Under the pieces are notes generated by a model. The model was given only the letters and a program-made list of their open reading frames with translations. It had not been told where the DNA came from and searched no databases. 64,000 bases of DNA from a virus: the IMG/VR virus record IMGVR_UViG_3300039412_000320; one strand, given 5' to 3'. Position 1 is the stretch's first letter. Every line of letters begins with the position of its first letter. The position numbers were made by a program, and so were the translations under genes. This document shows, in pieces, positions 1,676-63,607 of this stretch.

Positions 1676-1784
1676 TCTTGAGTATATTCCTTAACTCCTC
1701 CAACATGTCCTCAGTGATTACCGTATTTTCCACGTTAACTGGTTTATCGTCAACCCTATTGTCGTACATTGAACCCATCTCCTT

Positions 1785-3267: not shown

Positions 3268-3936
3268 CTAGGCAGCCTTAACTACTATAGCCTTGGGTTC
3301 CTTTAATGGGGAGGAATAACGATGCTCACCCCACCATTGTTTTTTAGCTATTCCTATACGAGAGTTTTTTTGTTGACGAATAAGCTCATTGAGCTTAGCA
3401 TCGTCGGAATAACCCGAGATTTTCCAAAGTCTGCTGGCTGTCATATAGGAAAATCCTAGTTGCTTGCTAATTTCTCTAAAAGTGCATCCCTTAATTCTAA
3501 GATTAATAACGTCGCCTATACGCCCCCAATACTTCTTTTTAGCTTCGGCGGCGTTATACCGATGAGTTTCAATCTTTGGTTTGCCTTTGAGTTTGAAGCT
3601 AATCGAAAGTTTATGTTCCATAGAAGGTACAAAACCGTCATGTCCATCTCCACCCCCAGTTATGTTATATCCAAAAATAGGATTATTAGATTGATATTTC
3701 CCTATGAAATATCTTTCTTGAGCGTTGAGGTCTTGTTTAGATGCCACAAACCCGGATAACAAGCATACTTCAAACGCCGTTTCTCCATACGCTCGAATAG
3801 CTCTATGAAAGTGGGTCTGGCTTCCTCTCTTTGCTTCTTGCTTATGCCTTGACCATCTTTTTGACGGGGTATTTCCCGAAGCCTTTCCGATATAAACTTT
3901 TTGATTTACTAAACATCGTACCAAGTATATAATCAT
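3268..3936 (-). CDS. GIY-YIG homing endonuclease
   Basis: N-terminal IYLVRCLVNQKVYIGKA...KRWSRH...YGETAFEV is the GIY-YIG motif set. It is inserted between two structural genes with 1-2 nt spacing. Confidence 0.8.
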   Translation of the reverse strand: MIIYLVRCLVNQKVYIGKASGNTPSKRWSRHKQEAKRGSQTHFHRAIRAYGETAFEVCLLSGFVASKQDLNAQERYFIGKYQSNNPIFGYNITGGGDGHDGFVPSMEHKLSISFKLKGKPKIETHRYNAAEAKKKYWGRIGDVINLRIKGCTFREISKQLGFSYMTASRLWKISGYSDDAKLNELIRQQKNSRIGIAKKQWWGEHRYSSPLKEPKAIVVKAA

Positions 3937-41698: not shown

Positions 41699-42406
41699 AT
41701 GGTATTTAGAATATACGCAATGAAAATCAGAAGTCACACCACCGAGAAAAGCTGGATTGTCTACCTTATAACCAACAAAGTAAATGGGAAGGTGTATGTT
41801 GGTCAAACATCCTGTGGTTTGAAAAGGCGATGGGCACTCCATTGTTCCCCCTCGGCGGGAAACAAACATCTGTTGAACTCTATTCGTAAATATGGCCGTG
41901 ATTCCTTTGAAATCAGCATTATCCACGGTCCGGGGCTTACCTTTGAAGAATCTAGCACCTTAGAGAAACGGGAAATATCTAAGAGGAAGTCAACCGACCA
42001 CCAATTCGGATACAACCGAAGTACGGGGGGTGAAGGAGGTGCTAATGGTATGAGATTCCCCTCCGAAACTTACCCCAAAAGATTGGGTAGAAAATGCTCT
42101 GTCGAAACCATCAAAAAACTACGGGATGCTGCAATTGGCAGAAAGTGCTCACCCGAAACAAGAGTGAAATTGAGGCTGGCACTAAAGGGTAAGAAACCAT
42201 CTGCTAAGGCTATAGAAAACTCCCGTAATGTGTGGATTGGAAGAAAGCACTCACCGGAATCGAAAAGAAAAATAGGGGCGGCACAAAGGGAAGTTAGGGA
42301 GGTAAAACCGAGAACACCTGAAACAATTACTAAACTGAAAGCGGCTTGGAAACGACGTAAATTAAAAAACCCAGAAATGGTGTTCCCGTTTCAAAAGGAA
42401 AAATAG
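41699..42406 (+). CDS. GIY-YIG homing endonuclease
   Basis: WIVYLITNKVNGKVYVGQTSCGLKRRWALH is nearly identical in its GIY-YIG core to the ORF at 15674-16450. An alternative start lies at ATG 41720. The stop abuts the helicase start (TAGTATG). Confidence 0.8.
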   Translation: MVFRIYAMKIRSHTTEKSWIVYLITNKVNGKVYVGQTSCGLKRRWALHCSPSAGNKHLLNSIRKYGRDSFEISIIHGPGLTFEESSTLEKREISKRKSTDHQFGYNRSTGGEGGANGMRFPSETYPKRLGRKCSVETIKKLRDAAIGRKCSPETRVKLRLALKGKKPSAKAIENSRNVWIGRKHSPESKRKIGAAQREVREVKPRTPETITKLKAAWKRRKLKNPEMVFPFQKEK

Positions 42407-48332: not shown

Positions 48333-49091
48333 ATGAAACAAGTATGTGGAGTTTACTGTATTTCTCTTGTTAATACAGAGCGCAACTATGTCGGGCAAGC
48401 CAAAGATGTTTTCAAACGTTGGAGGGAGCATCGGTGGGCTTTATCTAAGGGTGTGAATAAATCCAAAAGATTGCAAAGGGCGTGGAACAAATACGGTTCC
48501 GCTGCTTTTCTATTTAGGGTTTTGGAAGAATGTCCGTGCGACCCACTTGTGTTACTTACGAGAGAACAATATTGGATTGATGAACTTCAAGCCCACAAGA
48601 AAGGATTTAACTGTTCTCCGGTTGCTGGTTTGTCTACCTTGGGGGTTAAGTTTTCCGCTTCAACTAAGGCTAAGATATCAGAAAAAGCCAAAGGAAGGGT
48701 GATATCGGAAGAAACAAGAAGGAAAATTAGTGATGCCTTGAAGGGTCGATTATTTTCCTCAGAGCATAGGGCTCGATTATCGAAGGTAAGTACTCAAAGA
48801 ATGCTTACCTCTCCTGATAGATTTATTATCGGAAAGTGGTCTCACAACCACCCTCGTTTTGGAAAGGACAACTCGTTTTATGGTAAGCATCACTCGGATG
48901 ATGTAAAATTAATAATGTCAGAAAAACATCAAGGGAAAACAGCCTCTTCTGAGCTTTGTGCTTTACGCTCTAAAAATGCAACTGGGAAAAACAACCCCAT
49001 GTTTGGAAGAAAACATTCAGAAGAGACTAAGGAAAAAATTAGGCAAGCCCGAATTTTACGGGTTACGAGTATTGTAAGACAGGAAAGCTGA
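48333..49091 (+). CDS. GIY-YIG homing endonuclease with NUMOD3-like repeats
   Basis: GVYCISLVNTERNYVGQAKDVFKRWREH is the GIY-YIG motif; it also has repeated S(E/P)ETRRKIS / HSEETKEKIRQAR modules. It sits immediately downstream of nrdJ. Confidence 0.8.
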   Translation: MKQVCGVYCISLVNTERNYVGQAKDVFKRWREHRWALSKGVNKSKRLQRAWNKYGSAAFLFRVLEECPCDPLVLLTREQYWIDELQAHKKGFNCSPVAGLSTLGVKFSASTKAKISEKAKGRVISEETRRKISDALKGRLFSSEHRARLSKVSTQRMLTSPDRFIIGKWSHNHPRFGKDNSFYGKHHSDDVKLIMSEKHQGKTASSELCALRSKNATGKNNPMFGRKHSEETKEKIRQARILRVTSIVRQES

Positions 49092-51202: not shown

Positions 51203-51281
51203 ACTCCGGTGAGTCGAGCGGCTAAGACACCTGCCTTACAAGCAGGTAAACTCGTGGGTTCGAGTCCCACCCGGAGTACCA
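51203..51281 (+). tRNA. tRNA, anticodon UAC (Val) by manual fold
   Basis: Acceptor ACTCCGG/CCGGAGT. Anticodon arm CCTGC-CTTACAA-GCAGG has a loop identical to E. coli tRNA-Val(UAC). T arm GTGGG-TTCGAGT-CCCAC. CCA is encoded. Confidence 0.75.
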
Positions 51282-51292
51282 AAATTAAATAT

Positions 51293-51370
51293 GCCCCGGT
51301 AGCTTAGTGGCTTCAAAGCGCCACCTTCACACGATGGAGAACACAGGTTTGAGTCCTGTTCGGGGCACCA
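51293..51370 (+). tRNA. tRNA, anticodon CAC (Val?) by manual fold
   Basis: Acceptor GCCCCGG/TCGGGGC. D stem GCTT/AAGC. Anticodon arm CCACC-TTCACAC-GATGG (one mismatch). T arm ACAGG-TTTGAGT-CCTGT. CCA is encoded. Confidence 0.7.
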
Positions 51371-51604
51371 AGTTCTGGTTGACAGTAATGTCTACCAGAT
51401 GTCAACGTATACGGCTAATCCGGCTGACGACCGGTGTTATCGGCGACTTACGTTAAGAGCCGCCCTGTTTTAAGCCTTGTGGCGGGTAACCGCAGCGGTC
51501 ATAGACGACTGTAAATAGAAGGGCATCCAAGGCTGGCCTCTCCCGTTCGATTTGGGATACTGTGCTCATGGGTATGGTAAGCCAGCCCACAAGGCGAAAG
51601 ATTT

Positions 51605-51678
51605 GCAGGGGTAGCACAATGGCAGTGCGGGACGTTGCCAACGTTCATACGGGAGTTCGATTCTCCTCCTCTGCTCCA
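51605..51678 (+). tRNA. tRNA-Gly (GCC)
   Basis: Acceptor GCAGGGG/CCTCTGC. D arm GCAC-AATGGCA-GTGC. Anticodon arm GGACG-TTGCCAA-CGTTC. T arm GGGAG-TTCGATT-CTCCT. CCA is encoded. Confidence 0.85.
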
Positions 51679-51685
51679 AGTTTGT

Positions 51686-51759
51686 GGGGCCATCGTCTAA
51701 TGGGAGGACTTCTGCCTTGCACGCAGAAAACCGGGGTTCGACCCCCCGTGGTTCCACCA
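51686..51759 (+). tRNA. tRNA-Ala (UGC)
   Basis: Acceptor GGGGCCA/TGGTTCC with G3:U70. Anticodon arm TCTGC-CTTGCAC-GCAGA. T arm CGGGG-TTCGACC-CCCCG. CCA is encoded. Confidence 0.85.
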
Positions 51760-51763
51760 AAGT

Positions 51764-52312
51764 TTAGGCATACTTAGACATCCCTCGGGATTGTCTTCCG
51801 TTGCCTTTATTTCGACCACAGAAAGTTGGAGTCTGGCTGTTGCAGTTTGGACAAGTTAAGCGGACGTTGTCTGGTTTACAGTTTCCAGCATCTCCATCAA
51901 TGTGGTCTACGACTGGAATAAGGGGTTTGTTGCACCAAACGAGCAGCATACCGCAGATTTCACAGTTATTTCCTCTTTTTGAGATGAGGATTTTGCGGAT
52001 GGTTTTTCGGTGCTTGACTCCCCCTAGTTCAAACTGTTCTAGGGCCTTTGCATGGAGGTAGTGCCCACGTCCTTTCGGTTCTGGTTTCGGTTTTTTTGGT
52101 CTCTTTGCGTTGCTTGCTTTTGCCGAACAAGAACTGGAGCAATATGTGTTATCAAACCGTTTGTTGTAGGGGATGGATGCTTCGCATACGGGGCAACGTT
52201 TAGGGCTGAGCATGTATTTAGCTTCATTTTTAGCAGTCCGGCTCTTGTTGCTGCATGCTAGCGAACAATAGATGTGGTTTGCTGGTGTATTACAGACTGG
52301 GCATTGATTCAT
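51764..52312 (-). CDS. HNH homing endonuclease
   Basis: VDHIDGDAGNCKPDNVRLTCPNCN is the classic HNH core; there are several CxxC pairs upstream. Start placed at the internal Met (MNQCPVCN). The longer ORF-track start at 52363 would overlap the tRNA-Gly at 52326. Confidence 0.65.
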   Translation of the reverse strand: MNQCPVCNTPANHIYCSLACSNKSRTAKNEAKYMLSPKRCPVCEASIPYNKRFDNTYCSSSCSAKASNAKRPKKPKPEPKGRGHYLHAKALEQFELGGVKHRKTIRKILISKRGNNCEICGMLLVWCNKPLIPVVDHIDGDAGNCKPDNVRLTCPNCNSQTPTFCGRNKGNGRQSRGMSKYA

Positions 52313-52325
52313 AGTTGTTTTTTGG

Positions 52326-52400
52326 GCGGGATTGATGTCAATGGTAGCATGCCACGCTTCCAACGTGGTCGTACCGATTCGACTTCGGTATCCCGCTCCA
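52326..52400 (+). tRNA. tRNA-Gly (UCC)
   Basis: Acceptor GCGGGAT/ATCCCGC. Anticodon arm CCACG-CTTCCAA-CGTGG. T arm ACCGA-TTCGACT-TCGGT. CCA is encoded. Confidence 0.85.
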
Positions 52401-52446
52401 ACCTCCTATAAAAGGAGGTCGAAAGTCGGTTTTCGCTAAAGTTTAG

Positions 52447-52520
52447 GCGGGTATGGTATATTGGGTGTGCCCAACCTTCCCAAGGTTGTGAAACGGATTC
52501 GATTCCCATGTCCCGCTCCA
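52447..52520 (+). pseudogene. Degenerate tRNA-Gly-like element (anticodon CCC), probable pseudo-tRNA
   Basis: Its ends (GCGGGTA...GTCCCGCTCCA) match the neighbouring Gly tRNAs and it has a clean anticodon arm CAACC-TTCCCAA-GGTTG. The T stem (ACGGA/CCCAT) does not pair and acceptor pairs 6 and 7 are mismatched. It also contains TGGTATATT, an extended -10-like sequence. Confidence 0.4.
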
Positions 52521-52681
52521 AGATTGTAGTCACTCTAAGGGCTGTCGAAGCTGACGAGTGGCGAGGTTCTACCAGCAGGGTCCCTCAGTAAGGGGGACTG
52601 TGGTGGTTCCCCTGAAAAGGGACCCCGAGCAGTAGAACCTGCGGATGACTAGCTTAACCAGCCGGTTGTCCCGAATTTTGC

Positions 52682-52783
52682 GGGTGTAGCTTAATCAGAG
52701 CGGTGGTCCACCAGACCACGCCGTGTCCGGGCTTGATATCAAGTCAGGCATGTTGTACCGGCTGAACGCCGGTCGCCCGCTCC
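52682..52783 (+). ncRNA. tRNA-Gly-like element with a ~37-nt insertion between the anticodon arm and T arm
   Basis: It shares its 5' end GCGGGTGTAG and 3' end CGCCCGCTCCA with tRNA-Gly(CCC) at 58750. The acceptor pairs, the anticodon-like arm is GTGGT-CCACCAG-ACCAC, the T-like arm is ACCGG-CTGAACG-CCGGT, and there is a long extra region containing the palindrome CTTGATATCAAG. Confidence 0.4.
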
Positions 52784-52790
52784 AGTTTGT

Positions 52791-52865
52791 GGGCCTGTAG
52801 CTCAGCGGGAGAGCGCTTGCTCGACAAGCAAGAGGTGGTAGGCTCGACCCCTACCGGGCGCACCA
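52791..52865 (+). tRNA. tRNA, anticodon GAC (Val?) with C33
   Basis: Acceptor GGGCCTG/CGGGCGC (6 of 7 pairs). D arm GCTC-AGCGGGA-GAGC. Anticodon arm CTTGC-TCGACAA-GCAAG. T arm GTAGG-CTCGACC-CCTAC. CCA is encoded. The unusual C at position 33 lowers confidence in the anticodon call. Confidence 0.65.
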
Positions 52866-52877
52866 AAGTTTGGGACC

Positions 52878-52958
52878 GGAGCTTAAGCAGAACCTTCTGC
52901 CATCGGAAGAGCGTAGTGTTTACAACACTTGGGGGTGGGAATCCCTCCGGCTCCACCA
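52878..52958 (+). ncRNA. tRNA-like element ending in CCA, non-canonical
   Basis: 3' end CGGCTCC-A-CCA with T-like arm GGGGG-TGGGAAT-CCCTC and a 5' partner GGAGCTT. The interior (hairpins GCAG-AACCTT-CTGC and GTGTT-TAC-AACAC) cannot be folded into a standard cloverleaf by hand. Confidence 0.3.
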
Positions 52959-53044
52959 AGAACGACGCTGGGTTCGTGCTCCAGAAGTGGGTGACACGAC
53001 GCCAAGGAGAGGGGTTAACAGCCCGGAGAGTAGGACCAGCGTCA

Positions 53045-53695
53045 TCAAGTTTTGGGTACGTCGCCTAATGGGATGGCACTTCCCTCGCACGGAAGAACGA
53101 TTGCGGGTTCGACTCCCGCCGTATCCACCAAGTTTTTGAAAGTATATAGTCCATCCTTAGCGATGAAGTGTTCATCTTCATGGCAGGTGGGGCAAAGGAT
53201 TTCAAGGTTTTCAGGTTTGTTGTTTTTTCGATTGCGGTCTATATGGTGAACCCGCAGAACTGGGGTAAAGCGGGCGTATCCACAACGATTGCATTTTTTT
53301 GGATGATGTTTGAATGCAATTTCTCGATACGCCGCTCCACCGTTAGTGTAATGGTCTGGTCTCATATCATGAAATGCCTCACCGGATAGGATAGACTGAG
53401 CGTGGTCTTTACATGCCCGTGAGCAAAAAAGCAGACCAGATTTTGATGCTTTAATTTGAGCGGGGCGTTTTTCAAAGCTAGTAAAGCAAAATGAGCATTT
53501 TACAGTAACTCTTGTTCTACTAGCAACCCCCGAGCACTCTCTTGAGCAGTATTGACCATTAGAGTGTTTGGGTAAGTAAAAAGGCCTTTTGCATGTGGGA
53601 AGTGTACAGTAATGAAGAAACAGCCTTCTTGGCTTCCCATCGTAGAGTGTAGATATTATTGATTCTTCGGGTGGATTTGATATGTCAGTATGCAA
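53045..53695 (-). CDS. HNH homing endonuclease
   Basis: RVHHIDRNRKNNKPENLEILCPTCHEDEH is the HNH core. The stop-to-stop ORF runs across the tRNA-Ala(CGC) gene on the opposite strand. Confidence 0.65.
   Translation of the reverse strand: MHTDISNPPEESIISTLYDGKPRRLFLHYCTLPTCKRPFYLPKHSNGQYCSRECSGVASRTRVTVKCSFCFTSFEKRPAQIKASKSGLLFCSRACKDHAQSILSGEAFHDMRPDHYTNGGAAYREIAFKHHPKKCNRCGYARFTPVLRVHHIDRNRKNNKPENLEILCPTCHEDEHFIAKDGLYTFKNLVDTAGVEPAIVLPCEGSAIPLGDVPKT
53054..53130 (+). tRNA. tRNA-Ala (CGC)
   Basis: Acceptor GGGTACG/CGTATCC with G3:U70. Anticodon arm CTTCC-CTCGCAC-GGAAG. T arm GCGGG-TTCGACT-CCCGC. CCA is encoded. Confidence 0.8.
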
Positions 53696-53737
53696 GTGTG
53701 ATTACCTCCACCTATGTATTTGATAGTTGATTTTCAC

Positions 53738-53811
53738 GGCCTGTTCGTCTATCGGCAGGACAGCAGATTCTCAATCTGTAAAGAGGGGTTCGATTCCCCT
53801 ACGGGCTACCA
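53738..53811 (+). tRNA. tRNA, anticodon CUC (Glu) by manual fold
   Basis: Acceptor GGCCTGT/ACGGGCT. Anticodon arm GCAGA-TTCTCAA-TCTGT. T arm AGGGG-TTCGATT-CCCCT. CCA is encoded. Confidence 0.75.
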
Positions 53812-53818
53812 AATTCAT

Positions 53819-53895
53819 GGGGTCGTAGACAAGTGGCTTAAGTCGCCAGATTCTCAATCTGGAAACCGTGGGTTCAAATCCCATCGGCCCTGCCA
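53819..53895 (+). tRNA. tRNA, anticodon CUC (Glu?) by manual fold; second copy with a different body
   Basis: Acceptor GGGGTCG/CGGCCCT. Anticodon arm CCAGA-TTCTCAA-TCTGG. T arm GTGGG-TTCAAAT-CCCAT. Discriminator G. CCA is encoded. Confidence 0.75.
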
Positions 53896-53907
53896 AGTGG
53901 AGATGTT

Positions 53908-54105
53908 GTGGCAACGTTGACGCTGGACATAAACGAGGAAGCGAAGTTCAAGGCTTGGGAGAAAGAGCACAAGAAAAAGTGCAAACTCCGGCCCGGTACG
54001 TGTGGTGACCTTTACAGCTTCAACATCTGCCCAAGTGGTATTGGGGATTTTATCAGTGTTCACTGCCCGTGTGGAGCACAAGCAGACCTGACGGGAAGTT
54101 TGTAA
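53908..54105 (+). CDS. Small Cys-rich protein (zinc-ribbon-like)
   Basis: 65-aa ORF with a GTG start after GGAG. Contains CKLRPGTCGD...CPSGIGDFISVHCPCG. Confidence 0.35.
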   Translation: MATLTLDINEEAKFKAWEKEHKKKCKLRPGTCGDLYSFNICPSGIGDFISVHCPCGAQADLTGSL

Positions 54106-54375
54106 AAGGCAAGACCATGAGCCTATGGATAACATCATTCACAAACTGCTGGTATACGAGCCAATTCGTATATTTGATGAGTTTAGCCACTGGATTGTGG
54201 TAGGATGGATGATTCTCCATACGTTGAGTTGGGCGATAGTGGAAGGATGCCGACTCTACTGGTCAACGAAAATAAAGATTAGGCGCATTTTCATACAAGA
54301 TGTCGCCGAAGAGTAACGCACCTGTCGCCAAGTGGAAAGGCATAATTTGAACTACCAACCCCCTTTATAGGGGTT

Positions 54376-54888
54376 ATGATGCTTATTTGCAAAAATTGCG
54401 GTGGGTATATTCCATCAAGGGTAAATGTTGATGGGAAAATAAAAAAGCTGAACGGTCGCAGGTATTGTTTATCCTGTAGCCCATTTAAGGGAAAGAAATT
54501 TAATTATGAAACTGACCGGGATGAGAATAGAAATTTCCACTGCCGCTTATGTGGTCAGAACACCGGTCCTCGCAGGCGTATGTGTAATACCTGTGTATCC
54601 CGCATTAGACGTTTTCGAGCTAAACGTACAGCCGTAAAGTGGCTTGGAGGAAAATGCAATCGGTGTGGATGGGTCGGAGACATTGCGGCTTTTGAGTTTC
54701 ACCACCCCGGAGACAACAAAGAGTTCGATATTGGTACGGTTAGTAACAGAGCATGGGCAACGATAGTCAAAGAATTAAAAAAATGTGAATTACTCTGTTC
54801 CAACTGTCATCGTACCGAACATCATGGCATCCGTGATGAGAATTTCTTAAAAATAGCGGATGAATATGGTGGAAAAATTTATGTTTAG
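54376..54888 (+). CDS. HNH homing endonuclease
   Basis: N-terminal CxxC pairs. C-terminal FEFHHPGDNKEFDIG...CELLCSNCHRTEHH is the HNH core. Confidence 0.7.
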   Translation: MMLICKNCGGYIPSRVNVDGKIKKLNGRRYCLSCSPFKGKKFNYETDRDENRNFHCRLCGQNTGPRRRMCNTCVSRIRRFRAKRTAVKWLGGKCNRCGWVGDIAAFEFHHPGDNKEFDIGTVSNRAWATIVKELKKCELLCSNCHRTEHHGIRDENFLKIADEYGGKIYV

Positions 54889-54889
54889 T

Positions 54890-54963
54890 GACTCGGATTC
54901 CGAATGGTTAGGAGGCGGTCTGCAAAACCGTTTAAGTGGGTTCGATTCCCATCCGGGTCTCCA
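54890..54963 (+). tRNA. tRNA-Cys (GCA)
   Basis: Acceptor GACTCGG/CCGGGTC. Anticodon arm GCGGT-CTGCAAA-ACCGT. T arm GTGGG-TTCGATT-CCCAT. CCA is encoded. The gene starts 2 nt after the HNH stop. Confidence 0.85.
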
Positions 54964-54969
54964 GTTTAA

Positions 54970-55046
54970 GCACGGGTACCCAAGCGGCTTAAGGGACAGG
55001 TCCGCAAAACCTGCATTCATAGGTTCAAATCCTATCCCGTGCTCCA
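54970..55046 (+). tRNA. tRNA, anticodon GCA-like (Cys?) with C33
   Basis: Acceptor GCACGGG/CCCGTGC. D arm CCC-AAGCGGCTTAA-GGG. Anticodon arm CAGGT-CCGCAAA-ACCTG. T arm ATAGG-TTCAAAT-CCTAT. CCA is encoded. Confidence 0.65.
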
Positions 55047-55155
55047 AGTGAGGTCATGGCTACCATTGACCACGTAGTGGGTGCGGGCAAAATGATGAGG
55101 CTGCTGCCCGCCTTTGTACTCCCAAACGTGGATACTTCGCAGCCTCAAACTTTAT

Positions 55156-55233
55156 ACCGTGGAAGACAAAGTCGTCGAGTCCTCTGGCTTTCAACCAGAG
55201 CATTAGCGGGTCCGAGTCCCGTCCACGGTACCA
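55156..55233 (+). tRNA. tRNA-Glu (UUC)
   Basis: Acceptor ACCGTGG/CCACGGT. Anticodon arm TCTGG-CTTTCAA-CCAGA. T arm GCGGG-TCCGAGT-CCCGT. CCA is encoded. Confidence 0.8.
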
Positions 55234-55238
55234 ACTCT

Positions 55239-55332
55239 GGGGGATAGCACCGACGTGCAGGCAGGTCCTATAAACCTGTAGTTGCGGCTGATTACCGTGC
55301 TCGGCGGGGATTGACACCCCGGTCCCCTACCA
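55239..55332 (+). ncRNA. 94-nt tRNA-like element (class II-like, non-canonical)
   Basis: 7-bp acceptor GGGGGAT/GTCCCCT plus A-CCA. T-like arm CGGGG-ATTGACA-CCCCG. Anticodon-like arm CAGGT-CCTATAA-ACCTG. Long extra arm with a GCGG/CCGT hairpin. The D region is a tight GCAC-CGAC-GTGC hairpin with no GG. It is followed by TTTTTT. Confidence 0.4.
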
Positions 55333-55368
55333 TTTTTTAAGAATCTCAGTATTAGTCCTTGGGAGCAT

Positions 55369-55575
55369 ATGATGAAAAAGGAAAAAATCAGGGATTACGA
55401 GGTTCAGGCAAAACTCACACTCTACACCAGTACCACTGTTTCGGCCCGGTCTTTAGAGGAAGCGACTGAAAAGTCAAAAAACCTTAAGGAGCAGGATTTC
55501 GTAGACTTCAACGGTGATTACATCGATGGTAATATGCGGATTACCGGAGTCTATGAGTCTGGGTTTGAACTATAA
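55369..55575 (+). CDS. Hypothetical small protein
   Basis: 68-aa ORF between the tRNA block and the tmRNA. Confidence 0.4.
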   Translation: MMKKEKIRDYEVQAKLTLYTSTTVSARSLEEATEKSKNLKEQDFVDFNGDYIDGNMRITGVYESGFEL

Positions 55576-55675
55576 GTAATGTGACGGTTTGGGACACTCC
55601 GGTGGTTACATAAGGGACATGCCTTAGGGCACTACGCTCACACTGGGTAGCATATATGCGGTGTCCCGTTTAATG

Positions 55676-56026
55676 TGGGGGCGTTCTGGTTTCGACGGGA
55701 GCGCTCATTGCAGGAAGGCACGCCGGGAGGTTACCCTGCCCGTAACAAGGGTTAACAACGCAATTGCCACAGCGCAATATGCATTTGCTTAATCGCTAGA
55801 TTAGGCACGCTTGCTCTGCTTTAGCCTGTCGGGTAGAGGCCAAGCGCCGATAGAGAGGCTGCGACCGGGGATGCAGCCGATATCCGGCGAGATAAAGGCT
55901 TGCACCGTGGTTCTGATATGCCTGTTTCAGCAGAGTCATGGCAAAGAGCAGTACGAAGCAGGATAAGCGTGTAGTCTTCTTGTTGTGACACTTTTCGGAC
56001 CTGGGTTCAAATCCCAGCGCCTCCAC
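55676..56026 (+). ncRNA. ssrA: tmRNA (transfer-messenger RNA)
   Basis: 5' end GGGGGCGTTCTGGTTTCGACGGG matches the tmRNA consensus GGGGCUGAUUCUGGAUUCGACGGG. The 3' tRNA-like end CTGGG-TTCAAAT-CCCAG CGCCTCC A CCA pairs with the 5' end. An internal tag ORF GCA ATT GCC ACA GCG CAA TAT GCA TTT GCT TAA encodes (ANN)AIATAQYAFA*. Confidence 0.8.
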
Positions 56027-56208
56027 CAAAAAATTTATGGCTTCCGCCAAATGTTCCAAATGCAAGCATCGTAAATACAAAAAGCCCTGCACCGTAAGGG
56101 TCAAGGTCAAGGGGTGGATGAAGAGTATCCCGCCCGGATGGCAACAGGATTATGAACCCTGCGGGTGCAAGGAGACGGTGTGAGTAATTGCGACCGCTGA
56201 TATCCATT

Positions 56209-56820
56209 ATGAGTTGCCACGCTCACCGTCGCTGGCAGCAGCAACTCAGGGAAACATGGTTGAGAGAGTGCCCGGTTGATTATCGGTTTTTCTTGGGTAG
56301 TCCCAAATTGGAAAATGCTGATGATGATGAGGTTTCGCTGAATGTTTCTGACACATACGGAGACCTCTCATCCAAGGTCCAAGCTGCATATCAATGGGTG
56401 ATAATGTACAGCTATGACCACGTTTTTAAGTGTGATGTTGATACCTATGTTTGCACCCCTCGGTTACTCCGGTCGGGGTTTGAGCGGCATGACCATATAG
56501 GACAACGGGGTGTGGGGGAAAATAACCAACCCTACGGAGGCTCCGGGTACTGGCTCAGTAGGAAAGCGTTAGAGTTTCTTGCGTCAGCGCCCTGCTTAAA
56601 GGACACCCGTTGCTACAACGATGAGGATTGGTGGGTATGGGCAACGCTGTCATTTAATAGCGTTTGTCCCACAGAGCACGATGGTCGTTACAGTATGACG
56701 GAGGGAAGGGTCCCTCTCCCGGAAAACGACATCATCACTTACCACCCACACACACTTACCACCGAAGAACGTTTCATGGGCATTCAAATGGTCCACGAAA
56801 AGGCCAAGGAGATTAGATGA
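56209..56820 (+). CDS. GT31-family (Fringe/beta-1,3-galactosyltransferase-like) glycosyltransferase
   Basis: HRRWQQQLRETW fits the GT31 signature RR..IR.TW. It also has a DxD-like KCDVDTYV and YGGSGYWLSRKAL (GT31 GGGyvlSr motif). Start taken at the ATG at 56209; the ORF track starts at TTG 56188. Confidence 0.6.
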   Translation: MSCHAHRRWQQQLRETWLRECPVDYRFFLGSPKLENADDDEVSLNVSDTYGDLSSKVQAAYQWVIMYSYDHVFKCDVDTYVCTPRLLRSGFERHDHIGQRGVGENNQPYGGSGYWLSRKALEFLASAPCLKDTRCYNDEDWWVWATLSFNSVCPTEHDGRYSMTEGRVPLPENDIITYHPHTLTTEERFMGIQMVHEKAKEIR

Positions 56821-56833
56821 ATTTGGTAGCACT

Positions 56834-56870
56834 ATGTAGTGTGAGATGTAGTGTGAGATGTAAGGTGACG
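56834..56870 (+). repeat. Tandem 12-nt direct repeat (ATGTAGTGTGAG x2 plus a degenerate third copy)
   Basis: ATGTAGTGTGAG ATGTAGTGTGAG ATGTAAGGTGACG, directly downstream of the glycosyltransferase stop and upstream of the RNase P RNA-like element. Confidence 0.6.
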
Positions 56871-56959
56871 GCGTGAGCATCGGGAGCATGAGTTACTATC
56901 TTACTTTGAAGGCCCTTGACCCGGATGGGTCGAAGGGAATCTTCGCTCCTAATAATCCC

Positions 56960-57205
56960 AAGTTTGGAAAAGGTTTGTGGACTGGACAACTGCTGCCCCG
57001 CAAGGGGGAGAGGAAAGTCGGAGCTACACAGAGCACCGTGCGGGGTAACGCCCCGGCGCAGTAGCAATACTGCGACAATTAGAGCAACAGAGACGAGCCG
57101 GTTAAGTCCGGGTGAAACGGGCAATCTTCACGGGGAGCAATCTCGAATAGGAGGGGATGAACCTGCTCGGTTCGCTATAACCCTCGGGTTGAGAGCTTGA
57201 CCCCC
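56960..57205 (+). ncRNA. rnpB: RNase P RNA-like element (bacterial type A-like, apparently minimised)
   Basis: Collinear matches to E. coli M1 RNA conserved regions. (1) GAGAGGAAAGUCGGAGCUACACAGAGCA matches GGAGGAAAGUCCGGGCUCCAUAGGGCA. (2) Hairpin CGGGG-UAACG-CCCCG matches CCAGG-UAACG-CCUGG, with compensatory changes. (3) GCAACAGAGA is an exact 10-mer. (4) CCGGGUGAAACGGG matches AGGGUGAAAGGGUG. (5) GAUGAACCUGCUCGGUUCGC matches GACAGAACCCGGCUUAUCGG, with AGUCGG/UCGGUU able to form P4. It has a short GCAA-capped P3. Boundaries are approximate. No credible protein ORF covers the region. Confidence 0.45.
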
Positions 57206-57323
57206 CTAGTAATAGGGGGGGCTAGATTGATGGTTGTCGCCTCGCAAGAGGAACAAAACTCCGCTTATAAGTCCACAAATAATTTAGTGATTTGACTACG
57301 GCAACCTTATTAGAGAGATTGCC

Positions 57324-57788
57324 ATGAAACAAAGTAAGTCACAAAAGCGGTTGAATGCGGACTATACAAGACAGTTAGGTATGAGTCCGGGGTCAGCTAC
57401 CCATAAGCTTACTCGAAACCTTCTTTTTAGGTACATCCAACAAAACCACGATGATGTTTGTTATCGCTGTGGTTCAAAGATTGAGACGTTAGCATCTTTT
57501 AGCATTGAACACAAAGAGCCTTGGCGTAATTCGGACCCGAATCTGTTTTGGGATTTAGAAAATATTTCGTTTGCCCATAAAAAATGCAATATTCAGGCAG
57601 CCCAACACATCGGAAAAAGAGTAATAGGTCCACCGGGAACAAGCTGGTGCTCAAATCACAAAATGTTTTTTCCTGTTGATAGGTTTTATAAAAACCGGTC
57701 AATGTGGAATGGGTTACACCGTCAGTGTAAAGAGTGTCATAAAAATTGGAAGAAGGCTTATAGGTCCACAAAATTTTCAGTATTATAG
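57324..57788 (+). CDS. HNH homing endonuclease
   Basis: CYRCGSKIE...FSIEHKEPWRNSDPNLFWDLENISFAHKKCN is an HNH core with a zinc ribbon. Confidence 0.65.
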   Translation: MKQSKSQKRLNADYTRQLGMSPGSATHKLTRNLLFRYIQQNHDDVCYRCGSKIETLASFSIEHKEPWRNSDPNLFWDLENISFAHKKCNIQAAQHIGKRVIGPPGTSWCSNHKMFFPVDRFYKNRSMWNGLHRQCKECHKNWKKAYRSTKFSVL

Positions 57789-58076
57789 CTTGGTGCGTGA
57801 TGCGAATCAGCGCTGCTTGACCACGGATTTACTCAGCAATGGGAGCCGAGCTAGTAACTCTTTTACCGGGGGCCGCAAGAAGAGTGCGGATAGTCGGCTC
57901 ACTTCCAATTCCGCCGACGATAAAGATTGTAGGATGGTGAACAAGGCTACCCTATCGGGTCGAACCTTACTTTAGTTAGTAGTTGTGATTGGTCGTTTGT
58001 GGTCGCTGTTGTTGCGATTATTGATTAGGACCCACGACGCTGACTTGTTGGTCCCCGTCCAAATTCAAGGAGGCAT

Positions 58077-58712
58077 ATGAAATCCGATTCCGCATTTATC
58101 GCCGTAGTTTTAGACCGTTCCGGTTCCATGAGCATCGTCAAGGATGCGACCATCGACGGCTTCAACGAGTTCATCAATGGGCAGAAGCAGCAGCCCGGAG
58201 AAGCCCATCTCCTGTTGGTCCAATTCGACTCCATTGACCCCCATGAAATCGTTATCGACGCACCTTTGACGGACGTTCCAAATCTGACCAAGGACACCTT
58301 CTCCCCACGGGAGAACACTCCCCTGCATGACGCCATGGGGTGGACGATTATCGAGGTTGGCGAGCGGCTGGAAAAGATGCCGGAAGAGGAGCGCCCGGAG
58401 AAGGTCATCATCGTCATCCTCACGGATGGTCATGAGAACGCCAGCAAGGAATTCACGAAGGAAAATGTGGCGAACATGGTGAAGCACCAGACAGAGAAGT
58501 ACAACTGGACCTTCATCTTCTTGGGAGCCAATCAGAACGCCGTTCTGACCGCCAAGGGATTCAACATTTCGGCGGATACTTCCATGAGCTACAACAACAA
58601 CCCCTCCTCCACTCAGGAGGTATACCTTGCCGTAAGCGCCAACACCAGCGCCGTCCGGCGTGGTCTCAAGGCGTCGTTCACTTCCGCCCAACGGAAGGCG
58701 GCAAAACAGTAG
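58077..58712 (+). CDS. von Willebrand factor A (vWA) domain protein
   Basis: AVVLDRSGSM is the MIDAS DxSxS motif; it is followed by IIVILTDGHEN and a Rossmann-like alternation. RBS AGGAGG. Confidence 0.7.
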   Translation: MKSDSAFIAVVLDRSGSMSIVKDATIDGFNEFINGQKQQPGEAHLLLVQFDSIDPHEIVIDAPLTDVPNLTKDTFSPRENTPLHDAMGWTIIEVGERLEKMPEEERPEKVIIVILTDGHENASKEFTKENVANMVKHQTEKYNWTFIFLGANQNAVLTAKGFNISADTSMSYNNNPSSTQEVYLAVSANTSAVRRGLKASFTSAQRKAAKQ

Positions 58713-58749
58713 CCTGTTTGTATAGACAGGCTACCGAATCCTTATATAT

Positions 58750-58826
58750 GCGGGTGTAGTTCAGTCCGGTAGAACGCCAGCTTCCCAAGCTGGATGTCGT
58801 GGGTTCAAATCCCATCGCCCGCTCCA
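58750..58826 (+). tRNA. tRNA-Gly (CCC)
   Basis: Acceptor GCGGGTG/CGCCCGC. D arm GTTC-AGTCCGGTA-GAAC. Anticodon arm CCAGC-TTCCCAA-GCTGG. T arm GTGGG-TTCAAAT-CCCAT. CCA is encoded. Confidence 0.85.
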
Positions 58827-59041: not shown

Positions 59042-59671
59042 ATGGAACCCCTAGTGGGGGGCAATATGCCAAATATAGATTGGATTGGTAGGGAATTTGG
59101 GCTTTGGAGAGTCTTATCCCAAGGTAAGCGGGATGGGTATTTGCTGTGCTTGTGTCAAGGATGTAATAATCAAAAAGAGGTTGGGAAACAGACTCTCAAG
59201 AGAGGGACATCTACAAAATGCTTACAATGTAGGTACCGTAGCCAAAGGGGAAAACAATACCCTTGGGGTCCTCCGCAGTCTTCTCTCTCTGTAGAGGAGA
59301 TTTTTGTTAATAGACTCTTCTATCGGTACCGTCAACATGCAGAAGAACGGGGCCTTGAGTGGAAACTCACGAGAGAGGAGTTCTCCTCTATCATAAAGCG
59401 GGATTGTTACTGGGGCGGCTGTGCTCCGAAGATGAGGTTTATGCGCAAACACAAAAAGGATGTCAAGAGGGGTCGGGATGTTGGGATGATTGCAAATGGT
59501 ATTGACAGGTTGGACAACTCACTGGGGTATACTTTGGACAACACGGTTCCATGTTGCAAGGAGCATAATACCATGAAGTCTTCTCTCCCCGCCAATAGGT
59601 TCTTGGAATTAGTGAAGTCAGTATACATGCTTCATTGCAGGGGGGTTGATGAAAGCTCAGCTTTTGAGTGA
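59042..59671 (+). CDS. His-Me finger (HNH-like) homing endonuclease, paralog family A
   Basis: IDWIGREFGLWRVL...CLCQGCNN...TKCLQC and C-terminal ANGIDRLDNSLGYTLDNTVPCCKEHNTMK. A likely alternative start is ATG 59066 after GGGGGG. Confidence 0.7.
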   Translation: MEPLVGGNMPNIDWIGREFGLWRVLSQGKRDGYLLCLCQGCNNQKEVGKQTLKRGTSTKCLQCRYRSQRGKQYPWGPPQSSLSVEEIFVNRLFYRYRQHAEERGLEWKLTREEFSSIIKRDCYWGGCAPKMRFMRKHKKDVKRGRDVGMIANGIDRLDNSLGYTLDNTVPCCKEHNTMKSSLPANRFLELVKSVYMLHCRGVDESSAFE

Positions 59672-60383
59672 TATCCATTCTGAATTTTATAAAAATCCCC
59701 TTGAGTTCCTAGACTCCTTGGAGTTTTCTCCTAACCTTGATTTCCTTTTACTTCCCGGAGACCTCGTGGTACCCTGCTCACAAGGTAAGGAAAAGACCAA
59801 ACGGGTTGTAGATTACTTTGCTAGGAAGGCTCGCCACTGCATTTTTACTTGCGGAAACCATTGCTATTATTATGGTACTAAAGAAGCTGCCGAGGGAATC
59901 CTTATTTCCGTAATGCCTTCAAATTTCCACTGGTTAAGGAATTCTGTCGAGACGGTTGACGGAATTGGGTTTTTCGGTGGAGCAATGTGGTTTCCTGATG
60001 CCCCCCATAATAAGATGTATGAAGACCAATTAAGCGATTTTCTTGTTATTAGGGGATTTAAGGACTGGGTATACGAGGAAAATCATAAATTTATAGAAGC
60101 GGGCAAAAAATATATCACTGACAAGACCATTGTCCTTACCCATCACGTTCCCGCCTATAGTGTAGTTGCTCCAGTCTTTCAAGGCGATAATCTAAACCGA
60201 TTTTTTGTTTGTGATATGACTCACCTTATTTTAAAGAGAAAGCCGCCCCTATGGGTTTATGGGCATACCCACCTCCCCGGAAATAGAATGATGGGGGAAA
60301 CAAGGATTGTAGCAAACCCGTATGGATATCCTTTAGAAAGGAAAAATTTAGGGCCGTATCCTCCCGTTGTTTTTGAAATCTAG
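59646..60383 (+). CDS. Calcineurin-like metallophosphoesterase
   Basis: Motifs LSDIHSE, LLPGDLV, CGNHC, LTHHVP and YGHTHLP are in canonical order. Confidence 0.7.
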   Translation: MMKAQLLSDIHSEFYKNPLEFLDSLEFSPNLDFLLLPGDLVVPCSQGKEKTKRVVDYFARKARHCIFTCGNHCYYYGTKEAAEGILISVMPSNFHWLRNSVETVDGIGFFGGAMWFPDAPHNKMYEDQLSDFLVIRGFKDWVYEENHKFIEAGKKYITDKTIVLTHHVPAYSVVAPVFQGDNLNRFFVCDMTHLILKRKPPLWVYGHTHLPGNRMMGETRIVANPYGYPLERKNLGPYPPVVFEI

Positions 60384-60402: not shown

Positions 60403-60760
60403 ATGAACCCCGCCGTTGTAGCCGCCATCATCAAAAAATACGGAACTCACCTTGCCGGGGGTGAGTACGAGATTTTTGTTTCCCTCGCCGACGTGCAATC
60501 CATTCCGGTCGGCTCCGGGATGCGTGAGTACCAAGAACGGCCGCCGCAACGGGGTCGTCCTCCGCTTGTTTCAACGCCCGCAGGTTATCGACATCACCGC
60601 CACGGTGACCGACCTTGAAGGTAACCCCATCGTGAAAGCTCCCCCCGCTCCCCCGCCTGAACCGCCTCCTACCCCGGCCCCCGAGCCATTGTCAAAAGAC
60701 CCAATCTTTCAGACACTTGTAGATGTTGCCTCCTCCGCTACTCCCCCACCCCAAGCCTAA
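60403..60760 (+). other. Possible single gene split across two reading frames (frameshift or sequencing error) with a Pro-rich C-terminus
   Basis: Frame A (60403 onward) reads MNPAVVAAIIKKYGTHLAGGEYEIFVSLADVQSIPVGSGM and then turns to low-quality sequence. Frame B (+1), from about 60530, reads ...NGVVLRLFQRPQVIDITATVTDLEGNPIVKAPPAPPPEPPPTPAPEP...TPPPQA*. Confidence 0.3.
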
Positions 60761-60803: not shown

Positions 60804-62255
60804 ATGCGCAACCCACTGTTGTGTCCAAAGACGGCTATCTTGACTTCACCCAGTTATCTGGAGTCTCTCTATTCCCTCCTTTCGGGTGACCAAAGAAATG
60901 ACCGGTCCGCTTATCTCGAAGCCCGTCAGCATCTTGGCTCCGCCATCAACACCGTATCGGCAAAGATTCCCCCCAAGAGTCGGTTGACCAGAGATATCCG
61001 CTTTGCTCGCTGGGATATGGAGACCGCTAACGCCTTCGCCAAATCGGGAGATTGGGGCGCAGCAGCAGATAGCCAGCTACACGCTGTCTGGAAACTCCAG
61101 AACGTCGTAGCGGCCCTCCAGCGCAGCAAAAAGGCATACGGGTATGATGTTTGTCTTACCGCTGACTCTCAACTTCCGCTGCTGGACGGAACAGAAATAG
61201 CCATAGTTGACCTTCTAGGAAAGGACCATTTCTGGGTTTATTCAATAAACGAGAAGGGAATGCTTAGACCCGGATACGGGCATGACGCCCGACTGGTTGA
61301 AAAAGATGCCCCCCTACTAGAAGTAAGGTTGGACAACGGTAAAACTATAAGGTGTACCTTTACCGAGAGATTTATGCTAAGAGGGGGAGGATACAAACGG
61401 GCAGCAGAACTTATCCCCGGAGATTCCTTGATGCCTCTCTACAGAGACTTGGCTCCGATTGCTTTTGAGGGTAATGAATATGAAAGGACATACGAGCCGG
61501 GTAGAGAATCGTGGAAGTTTACCCATCGTTTTGCGGAAGCTAGATGTCCAAAGGGGTATGTAAGACATCATAAAGATTTGAATCGCTTCAACAATTCCCC
61601 TGACAATCTCGCTGTTATAACTTGGGAAGAACATCAGAAATTGCATCAAGAGTTGGGAGTTCCAGTTACAGATAAAGGGCGGACGGCACGTAGCCGTAAC
61701 ATGTCCAAAATTAACTCTGACCGCAAGGGGAAACCACGTCCTTGGGCACACTTTCCTCATCCGTGGGTGAATAAAGAAGAAAAGGCCAATATTTTGGTGA
61801 AATACAGGGAGTTGTTGGGGGAAGAGGGGTTTGTTGTTGCCCAGAAGCACAGAAGTCAACTAGCTACCCACAAACGCTGGCACACAGACCGCCAGATAGT
61901 CTCTGCCACTTGTTTGCTTTGTGCCTCCGTTAATCATAAGGTGGTATCAGTCGCATCTGCTGGTACTGCTGATGTATATGATTTTATTGTTGATAAGTAT
62001 CATAATTTCGCTTTGAGTGCCGGGGTTTTTGTACATAACAGTGGGCAAACACAGGGAGAAATTTTCAACGGCTCGGAGGCAATTGCCAACCGGGAAAACC
62101 AGAAGAATATTGACGACACGGCACAGCCGTTTGAGCAGCACCAGAATGTTAAAAATCCACTAAATCTAACAAGGGACTGGGAGGCGGAGAACGACTACCC
62201 CTCGCTCGCTGAAAAGAAGAGCAAGCGGATTCACTGGCCTCCCCGACTGAGATAA
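60804..62255 (+). CDS. Small hypothetical protein interrupted by an HNH-containing intein
   Basis: Exteins are aa 1-116 and the last 71 aa. The central 296 aa show intein termini. Confidence 0.65.
61152..62039 (+). mobile_element. Intein with embedded HNH endonuclease domain
   Basis: Begins [21 protein letters not shown] (block A). Internal [27 protein letters not shown] is an HNH motif. Ends [24 protein letters not shown] followed by +1 Ser (block G, HN|S). Confidence 0.75.
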
Positions 62256-63607
62256 TGCCAGCTATCAGAGTCATAGACCCGGTCAACCCCAACTCCGTTT
62301 TCACTATCGACGGCATCCTCGTCACGTATGTGAAGCCGTGGAATAATACCATCACCTATCAGTTTGGCAACGCCCTCACCTACAACGGCTCCTCGTGGAT
62401 TTCGCTCCAGAACAACAACCGGGGCAACACCCCCTTCGTCGGCTCCACGTGGTGGGGTCTCATTGCCCAGAGTGTGACCGGCACGACCGGCCCTACGGGG
62501 CCGCTCGGTGCCACAGGACCGGGAAACTTTACAGGGTATACCGGCTACAGCGGCCCCAGCGGTTTCACGGGTTACACTGGTCCGGGCAATTTTACAGGAT
62601 ATTCGGGTCCGACCGGTTACACTGGAGATTCTGGGCCGACCGGACCTACCGGACCCGGCATAACCGGATATACAGGAACGACCGGACCTACTGGGCCGGG
62701 TAATTTTACCGGTTTCACGGGCTATACGGGGGACAGCGGCCCCACGGGTCCCGGCAACTTTACCGGATATTCGGGGTATACAGGACCGATTGGGCCAGCT
62801 GGGTATACCGGCTATACCGGTCCTGAAAGCACGGGGTACACAGGCTTTACAGGAGCCAGTGGATTCACCGGACCCACCGGACCGGGGAACTTCACGGGTT
62901 ACACTGGTTACACGGGAACGAGCGGCTACACAGGTCCAACTGGACCCGGAAATTCCACAGGTTATACGGGATATTCGGGGGCTACAGGGCCTACCGGACC
63001 GGGCAATTTTACTGGGTCTACAGGCTACAGCGGATATACGGGAGCGACCGGTCCGGGCAATTTTACAGGTTACACAGGATACACGGGTTATACCGGAGTA
63101 ACTGGTTACACTGGACCCAGTGTCACCGGATATACGGGCTATTCAGGATACACAGGTTACACAGGACCCGGTAATTTTACGGGTTACTCAGGTTACACCG
63201 GCTACACGGGACCGATTGGTTATACGGGTTACACAGGCTATACGGGACCTTCATCGGGAGCCATTGTTTTTGTTATTGACGGCAGAGGTTCGGTGCCTGC
63301 CACAGGGTCGTATGGGTATGTTCAAGTTCCCTACAACGCAACCATCACAGGTTGGACATTGCTCGCCAACGCCTCGGGCACAGCACAGATTACCATCAAG
63401 AAATGTACTTATGCAAGCTTCCCCACGACCGCCAGTATTGTAGCGTCTGCTCCTCCCAACTTAAGTGGGCCACAGCAGAATAATACCAGCACTGCGGTAG
63501 ATACGTGGACAAGGACCCTGACGCTGGGGGATGTTTTAGAGTTTAACCTTGACGCCGCCGCAACCGTCAACCGACTGGCGCTGATGCTGGATATTACGAG
63601 GAGCTAA
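62255..63607 (+). CDS. Collagen-like triple-helix repeat protein (probable fibre) with globular C-terminal domain
   Basis: About 250 aa of G-X-(T/S) triplets ([38 protein letters not shown]...) with a recurring GPGNFTGY unit. The start overlaps the previous stop (TAATG). Confidence 0.7.
62500..63250 (+). repeat. Tandem 9-nt-periodic nucleotide repeat encoding the collagen-like region
   Basis: Reiterated GGN TAC ACN / GGN CCN ACN units. They generate long shadow ORFs in the other two forward frames. Confidence 0.7.

Follow-up and report, generated by a model that had tools for sequence, protein, structure and literature searches.

What is the 483-codon open reading frame near the end of a 64,000-nucleotide stretch of viral DNA (IMG/VR record IMGVR_UViG_3300039412_000320, hereafter the window), and what is the element that occupies its middle? 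A preliminary description of this DNA had proposed that positions 61152..62039 encode an intein of HNH type inside a small, probably important protein with no recognizable function. The analysis presented here indicates that the reading frame very probably encodes a precursor: a 187-aa protein of jumbo phages, interrupted by a class-1 intein that itself harbours an HNH homing endonuclease. The element is a known kind of mobile intein with an HNH nuclease, while its host family and insertion site are new. The precursor gene, its parts and the two genes that precede it are as follows.

59646..60383, + strand: calcineurin-like metallophosphoesterase gene, always one small ORF upstream of the host-family gene
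60406..60760, + strand: conserved ORF of ~90-120 aa belonging to the same cassette, interrupted by a 1-nt insertion with a frameshift near 60540
60804..62255, + strand: precursor gene of 483 codons plus stop (483 aa, 55.0 kDa); ribosome-binding site GAGGG 7 nt before the ATG; stop codon overlapping the start of the next gene (TAATG)
60804..61151, + strand: N-extein, aa 1-116; N-terminus MRNPLL..K, ending in the start of the conserved tail, KKAYGYDV; residue -1 is Val116
61152..62039, + strand: intein, residues 117-412 (296 aa, 33.8 kDa), class-1 type with nested HNH endonuclease
61152..61190, + strand: block A; Cys117 is the intein Cys1 nucleophile
61338..61379, + strand: block B, RCTFTERF; Thr of the TxxH motif retained, His replaced by Glu188 (intein Glu72)
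61365..61367, + strand: GAG codon of Glu188
61557..61646, + strand: HNH nuclease motif, ...EEHQKLH; a beta-beta-alpha element in the structure model
61647..61967, + strand: helical basic region 3' of the HNH motif, from sequence and structure model
61869..61922, + strand: His/Cys cluster HKRWH...CLLC within the post-HNH helical region
61968..62039, + strand: blocks F and G; block F is VYDF...YHNF; the intein ends GVFVHN with His411 penultimate and Asn412 terminal
62040..62255, + strand: C-extein, aa 413-483 plus stop (71 aa); Ser413 is the +1 nucleophile

Beyond Ser413, the C-extein consists of the conserved tail SGxxGE...NP.NLTRD...DYPSL...KR.HWPPRLR, which is predicted to be disordered. Splicing in silico joins 116 and 71 residues into a product of 187 aa.

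Evidence for an intein in the reading frame

An intein domain call by profile search had been named in advance as a check, and it was obtained with the curated Pfam cut-offs. Intein_splicing PF14890 scored 49-51 bits (E 8e-13 to 2e-13; cut-off 35.8), and the NCBIfam model intein_Cterm TIGR01443 also exceeded its cut-off (18.8-21.1 against 15.6 bits). The HNH motif inside the element is intact, with intein residues 131-162 matching HNH_3 PF13392 at 27.9-28.6 bits (cut-off 24.8), and several HNH endonuclease PHROGs match the intein as well (E down to 8e-8). Its strongest NCBIfam match (E 1e-30) is the intein portion of an intein-containing RtcB model. An HMMER sequence search of PDB aligned the Npu and Ssp DnaB mini-inteins (4o1r, 1mi8) over both the N and the C lobes. 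The AF2 model of the intein, built with 49 relatives, has a mean pLDDT of 80.6, mostly above 90 in the Hint lobes; when compared with PDB by Foldseek, it ranks the Ssp/Npu DnaB, DnaE and RecA inteins first (probability 1.00, target TM 0.77-0.87). The helical basic region that follows the HNH motif has the lowest model confidence and the most length variation among relatives, and presumably provides the homing endonuclease with its DNA-binding function. The Cys1 column is near-invariant across the 49 relatives, and the intein start and end are canonical as first described, with Cys1 at one terminus and ...VHN followed by Ser413 at the other. Splicing-domain profiles, Cys1, blocks F and G and the fold all agree, far more closely than chance would allow, and the proposed boundaries of the 296-aa element proved exact.

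Among solved structures, the Ssp and Npu DnaB mini-inteins (1MI8, 4O1R, 6FRG) are the best matches in both sequence and fold. They share with the window intein the Hint horseshoe, Cys1, block F (VxDLTV..HNF), the terminal HN and a Ser/Cys-type +1 residue; in contrast to it, they are nuclease-free (engineered or natural), reside in a replicative helicase and have the TxxH histidine, His73. The HNH inteins of RtcB (NCBIfam NF052663), baseplate gp25/W (PF04965), dCTP deaminase and GyrA/GyrB are 28-47% identical to the window intein over the whole length. This group has the same order of Hint-N, HNH, helical region and Hint-C and shares the motifs ...DSLMPLYR... and NHKVVSV...HNFAL..GVFVHN, but its members occupy other hosts and sites, nearly all have TxxH, and most carry Cys at +1.

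The second check named in advance was the contiguity of the flanking segments in homologues. The spliced 187-aa extein used as a query retrieved 30 homologous proteins, of which P0001, also 187 aa long and 94% identical to the extein, runs uninterrupted through the junction (KKAYGYDT|SGQIQGE). About 20 further full-length homologues (184-229 aa) are uninterrupted too, and in all, contiguous flanks were seen in P0001 plus more than 20 others. At the nucleotide level, the spliced coding sequence and the intein-less coding sequence of contig L004 each measure 564 nt and align without gaps at 89.7% identity. In a 23-sequence alignment, the junction falls within the family's best-conserved block, where K109, A111, Y112, Y114, D115 and S117 are invariant; the insertion point lies between Val116 and Ser413, in the invariant motif K-x-A-Y-G-Y-D-x|S. 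Insertion into the most conserved block is typical for inteins.

These data also bear on whether the element could be something other than an intein, such as a resident Hint/BIL-type or HNH domain, or whether the reading frame could be an assembly chimera. BIL and Hedgehog domains, which are also Hint folds, do occur among the lower-ranked fold matches. However, exactly these 296 residues are missing from the orthologues, the termini are the canonical Cys1 and HN|S, and PF14890 scores above its cut-off. The same arrangement is found on the independent metagenome contig L005, where the intein-bearing copy of the gene (protein P0031) has one amino-acid difference, and the gene is therefore not an assembly artefact. 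We consider such alternatives extremely unlikely; they are effectively refuted by the intein-less orthologues together with L005. An intron or a free-standing HNH gene is excluded by the continuous reading frame. Class 3 inteins have no position-1 nucleophile and are marked by a block B Trp, a block F Cys and a block G Thr (the WCT triplet). This class is excluded by the presence of Cys1 and by an Asp in block F (VYDF) where class 3 has Cys.

The host protein family

The host protein has no recognizable function, as the preliminary description had stated: it has no match in Pfam, the PHROGs, PDB sequences or known folds. Neither the spliced extein nor 31 family members gave a significant result in Pfam and PHROG scans, and no family match was found in NCBIfam. 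A HEPN-like match (1o3u, E 0.14) and matches to the Hsp104 coiled coil, both from the PDB profile search, were not significant. Fold searches with the host model returned generic helical bundles only, and Foldseek against viral structures gave no match at E <= 0.001. Inspection of the tail sequence gave no support for PIP-box/clamp-binding motifs or for a prohead-protease site.

An exhaustive profile search defined the family as 63 cluster representatives among 1.84 billion. It comprises a short form of ~72-86 aa, with the consensus M..KLL.K-AYGYD.SGE…ENQ.NI.DT.QP..HET.NP.N…D..AE.EFP.L…WPPR.R, and a long form of ~185-260 aa. In the long form, the N-terminal NPLL..K and the AYGYD motif are separated by an inserted four-helix bundle. 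When the 94%-identical P0001 was modelled with AF2 to represent the host protein, this bundle (helices 16-108) came out with pLDDT >90, whereas the tail, the most conserved sequence of the protein, is modelled as disordered (pLDDT <50). One member, P0010 (297 aa), has the N-terminal helical-bundle module in tandem duplicate, followed by a single conserved tail.

The suggestion that the host protein is probably important gains indirect support from its conservation across diverged jumbo phages in a fixed cassette, from an extein dN/dS of ~0.01-0.05 and from the location of the intein in an invariant motif; this support does not extend to essentiality itself. With low confidence, we propose an accessory role for the host protein, either early in infection or in the replication module; its conserved disordered tail would mediate this role, perhaps in concert with the metallophosphoesterase and the ~90-aa protein.

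Genomic context and the closest cultured relative

The order of metallophosphoesterase gene, ~90-aa ORF and host gene is invariant for the long and short forms alike. This cassette usually lies a few genes upstream of a DinG/XPD-like helicase gene, and it is found on jumbo-phage contigs of 180, 344 and 413 kb as well as in Tunturiibacter phage Tunturi_5. The 1-nt insertion that interrupts the small ORF in the window is defined relative to the orthologues on contigs L008 and L004, and it is also present in the independent contig L005. A pseudogene, a sequencing error common to the window and L005, and programmed frameshifting are possible explanations. The gene downstream of the precursor gene (62255..63607, + strand) encodes a tail-fibre-like protein with collagen repeats (G-x-x); the same position in related contigs is taken by a 186-aa ORF, a 550-aa ORF or glycosyl-/methyltransferase genes of ~1200 aa.

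The closest cultured relative of the window is Tunturiibacter phage Tunturi_5 (L007, PP885688.1), a 309-kb jumbo myovirus, which suggests that the window belongs to an Acidobacteriota-infecting soil jumbo phage. The baseplate wedge protein of Tunturi_5 is 46% identical over 78% of the window protein. Its gp195 (L007 5980..6198), a 72-aa protein annotated as hypothetical, is a short-form family member and the sole match of a tblastn search against phage genomes; it is encoded three genes upstream of a DNA helicase and a DnaB-like helicase. The paper describing this phage makes no mention of inteins (PMC11924767). A DNA similarity search of the 6-kb region against known phages matched only a tRNA.

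Other elements in the window

The window contains a second intein of ~326 aa (46420..47397, + strand) in the ribonucleotide reductase (RNR) gene (45400..48282), inserted after NPCGEIILRSKGL. It begins CVSKQTPL, has block B CTPDHGF and the LAGLIDADG-like motifs LGFCVGDGS and VAGWMDADGS; its end seems to be Gln (…LTYQ|CNLTEV) in place of His-Asn. It has no Pfam call at E<1e-3. It is of the LAGLIDADG type and unrelated to the HNH intein, and phmmer found no second copy of the HNH intein among the window ORFs. Five free-standing genes resemble homing endonucleases (3268..3936, - strand; 41699..42406, 48333..49091, 57324..57788 and 59042..59671, + strand), three of them GIY-YIG (two with NUMOD3) and two HNH/endonuclease VII-like. 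With five such genes and two inteins, the segment is unusually rich in selfish nuclease elements. Upstream of the cassette, the region 51203..58826 (+ strand) carries 13 tRNA genes (Val x3, Gly x4, Ala x2, Glu x2, Cys x2), and a tmRNA with the tag ATAQYAFA lies within it at 55677..56028.

Mobility, alleles and selection

The same AYGYDx|S site is occupied by inteins in at least four other lineages (P0090, P0091, P0092 and P0093), as well as in the fragments P0005, P0066 and P0020, the last being a fragment of P0091. The allele P0093 is a 198-aa mini-intein in which HNH has degenerated. In P0092 (L009 574..1875; L010 151..1452), a 359-aa HNH intein sits between exteins of 17 and 57 residues in a short-form host protein of ~74 aa, which is very small for an intein host. 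Relatives of the intein also occur in baseplate gp25/W, RtcB, dCTP deaminase, GyrA/B and peptidases, and the intein lineage is therefore promiscuous.

Divergence of inteins and exteins disagrees between alleles. The window and P0090 have exteins that are 94.9% identical and inteins that are 68.0% identical, whereas for P0090 and P0091 the corresponding values are 48.2% and 75.5%. This incongruence indicates that the intein has probably moved horizontally. The intein is also lower in GC (45.8%) than the N-extein (54.6%) and C-extein (50.9%) of the window, and the difference (45-46% against 51-57%) is found in both the window and contig L008, which carries the P0090 allele.

Comparison of the window with L008 further reveals the mode of selection. 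The exteins are 87% identical at the nucleotide level with dN/dS 0.01-0.05, and are under strong purifying selection. The inteins are 68% identical at the nucleotide level and saturated at synonymous sites (pS 0.76-0.81). Since pN is nevertheless low, at 0.19-0.22 in the splicing and nuclease parts alike, purifying selection is indicated for both parts of the intein. Over the final 37 codons of the intein, identity reaches 83%, a value compatible with a boundary of recombination or co-conversion.

Homing would proceed in co-infected cells, where the HNH nuclease would cut intein-less alleles at the AYGYDxSGE-coding site, and recombinational repair would then copy the intein into the cut allele. 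The window and the intein-less L004 allele (1361..1924) differ at seven consecutive nucleotides precisely at the junction (spliced nt 345-351, window 61148..61151 + 62040..62042; GAT GTT|AGT against GAC ACC|TCG). A 30-nt stretch around the junction has 9 mismatches, compared to 0-7 elsewhere in a gene that is otherwise ~90% identical. This pattern fits either divergence of the target site (immunity) or a co-conversion tract, and the L004 allele may not be a substrate for the window nuclease because of the seven differing nucleotides. The +1 Ser is encoded by AGY in 4/4 intein-bearing alleles; of the intein-less alleles, four have Ser at this position, and two of these use AGY as well. Presence/absence polymorphism, recurrence at one site, intein/extein incongruence and the GC difference together appear to form the signature of a homing intein.

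Mycobacteriophage inteins, some of them in hypothetical proteins, are likewise sporadic among close relatives and located in conserved motifs (Kelley et al. 2016, PMC5050341). They differ from the window intein in belonging to actinobacteriophages, other exteins and other intein lineages. Inteins in phage proteins without known function are thus already documented (PMC5050341); what is new here is the host family, the insertion site, the very small extein of one allele and the His-to-Glu replacement in block B.

A glutamate in place of the block B histidine

The preliminary description had overlooked that the window intein does not have the canonical block B His. In the TxxH motif, Thr is kept and His is replaced by Glu (TFTE); in the HMMER alignment, Glu72 is paired with His73 of the Ssp DnaB intein. 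Among 67 related inteins aligned with MAFFT, Glu occupies this position in four (window/P0031, P0090, P0091 and P0097) and His in the remaining 63/67; one of the alleles at the AYGYDx|S site, P0092, retains the canonical residue (CTPSHPF). The inteins of the window, P0090 and P0091 are 66-75% identical to each other, and the P0097 intein, which is only 34% identical, resides in a host protein other than the family described here. Since Glu is common to inteins that are only 34-75% identical and occur in two host proteins, we infer that it is an old, maintained variant rather than a sign of decay.

The block B His is described as the single most conserved intein residue and is essential in many inteins, and natural inteins that do without it are a very small subset, the Tko CDC21-1 group (PMC6333167). 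As such inteins are known, the missing His does not exclude the window element from the inteins. The Tko/Pho/Pab CDC21-1 inteins are natural class-1 inteins that splice without the block B His and have a bulky -1 residue, and bulky -1 residues are able to compensate for the loss of this His (PMC6333167). In contrast to the window intein, they are archaeal, are hosted by the MCM/CDC21 helicase and belong to another sequence family, and their compensating residue is not known to be a Glu at the His position; the resemblance is thus by analogy only. Residue -1 is Val in the window and Ile or Thr in other alleles, and a Cys directly precedes the block B Thr (RCTFTE).

Splicing would begin with an N-S acyl shift at Cys117. 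As the block B His, which usually strains the N-terminal scissile bond, is Glu here, activation of this first step is presumed to come from the Glu carboxylate and/or from the bulky beta-branched -1 residue (Val/Ile/Thr). Ser413 would then attack the thioester to give a branched ester, Asn412 would cyclize with the aid of His411 and the block F His to release the 33.8-kDa intein, and an O-N shift would yield the native ...AYGYDV-SGQTQGE... protein of 21.2 kDa. Splicing, the activity and specificity of the nuclease and the role of Glu72 are all putative here. Judging from conservation, splicing would restore an active host protein.

In the absence of the block B His, splicing could be slow, conditional or impaired. 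A decaying or splicing-impaired intein would leave the precursor unspliced or subject to side cleavage only, so that the host gene would be inactivated or would work as a fusion. The replacement of a His that is essential in many inteins (PMC6333167) speaks for this explanation, as does the frameshift in the adjoining conserved small gene of the same genome, which suggests that the region tolerates damage. On the other hand, Glu is kept in the window, P0090, P0091 and P0097 and thus looks old and maintained, every other catalytic residue is intact, and the -1 residue is bulky and beta-branched, the condition shown to compensate for the lost His (PMC6333167). An intein pN/pS of ~0.25, together with the low dN/dS of the exteins, speaks for continued function of the intein as well as of the host protein. 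We therefore regard impairment as unlikely.

The unusual catalytic Glu and the Cys immediately ahead of the block B Thr can also be accommodated by a conditional regulatory intein, in which splicing would be gated by redox, pH or metal, via Cys1 and the block B Cys or via Glu, and would set when the host protein becomes active in the course of infection; the element would then not be purely selfish. Retention of the insertion site in several lineages, including the nuclease-less mini-intein P0093, is in line with such a role. However, most family members have no intein, the intact HNH and the discordant divergence of inteins and exteins are in keeping with simple selfish mobility, and the persistence of a mini-intein is the normal end of the homing cycle; we judge conditional control to be highly improbable. 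The preferred reading remains a mobile class-1 intein with a nested HNH endonuclease.

Implications

Going one step further, we tentatively propose a combined hypothesis, which we hold to be possible rather than probable: i) the inteins of the window, P0090, P0091 and P0097 would form a class-1 sub-lineage in which Glu functionally replaces the block B His, and ii) the host protein would belong to the core factors of Tunturi-5-like jumbo phages, would so far have escaped recognition and would act via its conserved disordered tail. If so, these inteins would use a distinct activation of the N-terminal scissile bond, assisted by a carboxylate and/or by strain from the -1 residue and possibly gated by pH, and the intein would flag the functional centre of the host protein and could exert conditional control over it. 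A naturally maintained His-to-Glu variant bears on both the splicing mechanism and intein engineering.

Inteins insert into functionally critical motifs, and the intein therefore points to AYGYD-x-S as the functional centre of an otherwise anonymous family that soil jumbo phages have conserved. The presence of this family in the cultivable phage Tunturi_5 makes the motif a concrete residue-level target for experiments.
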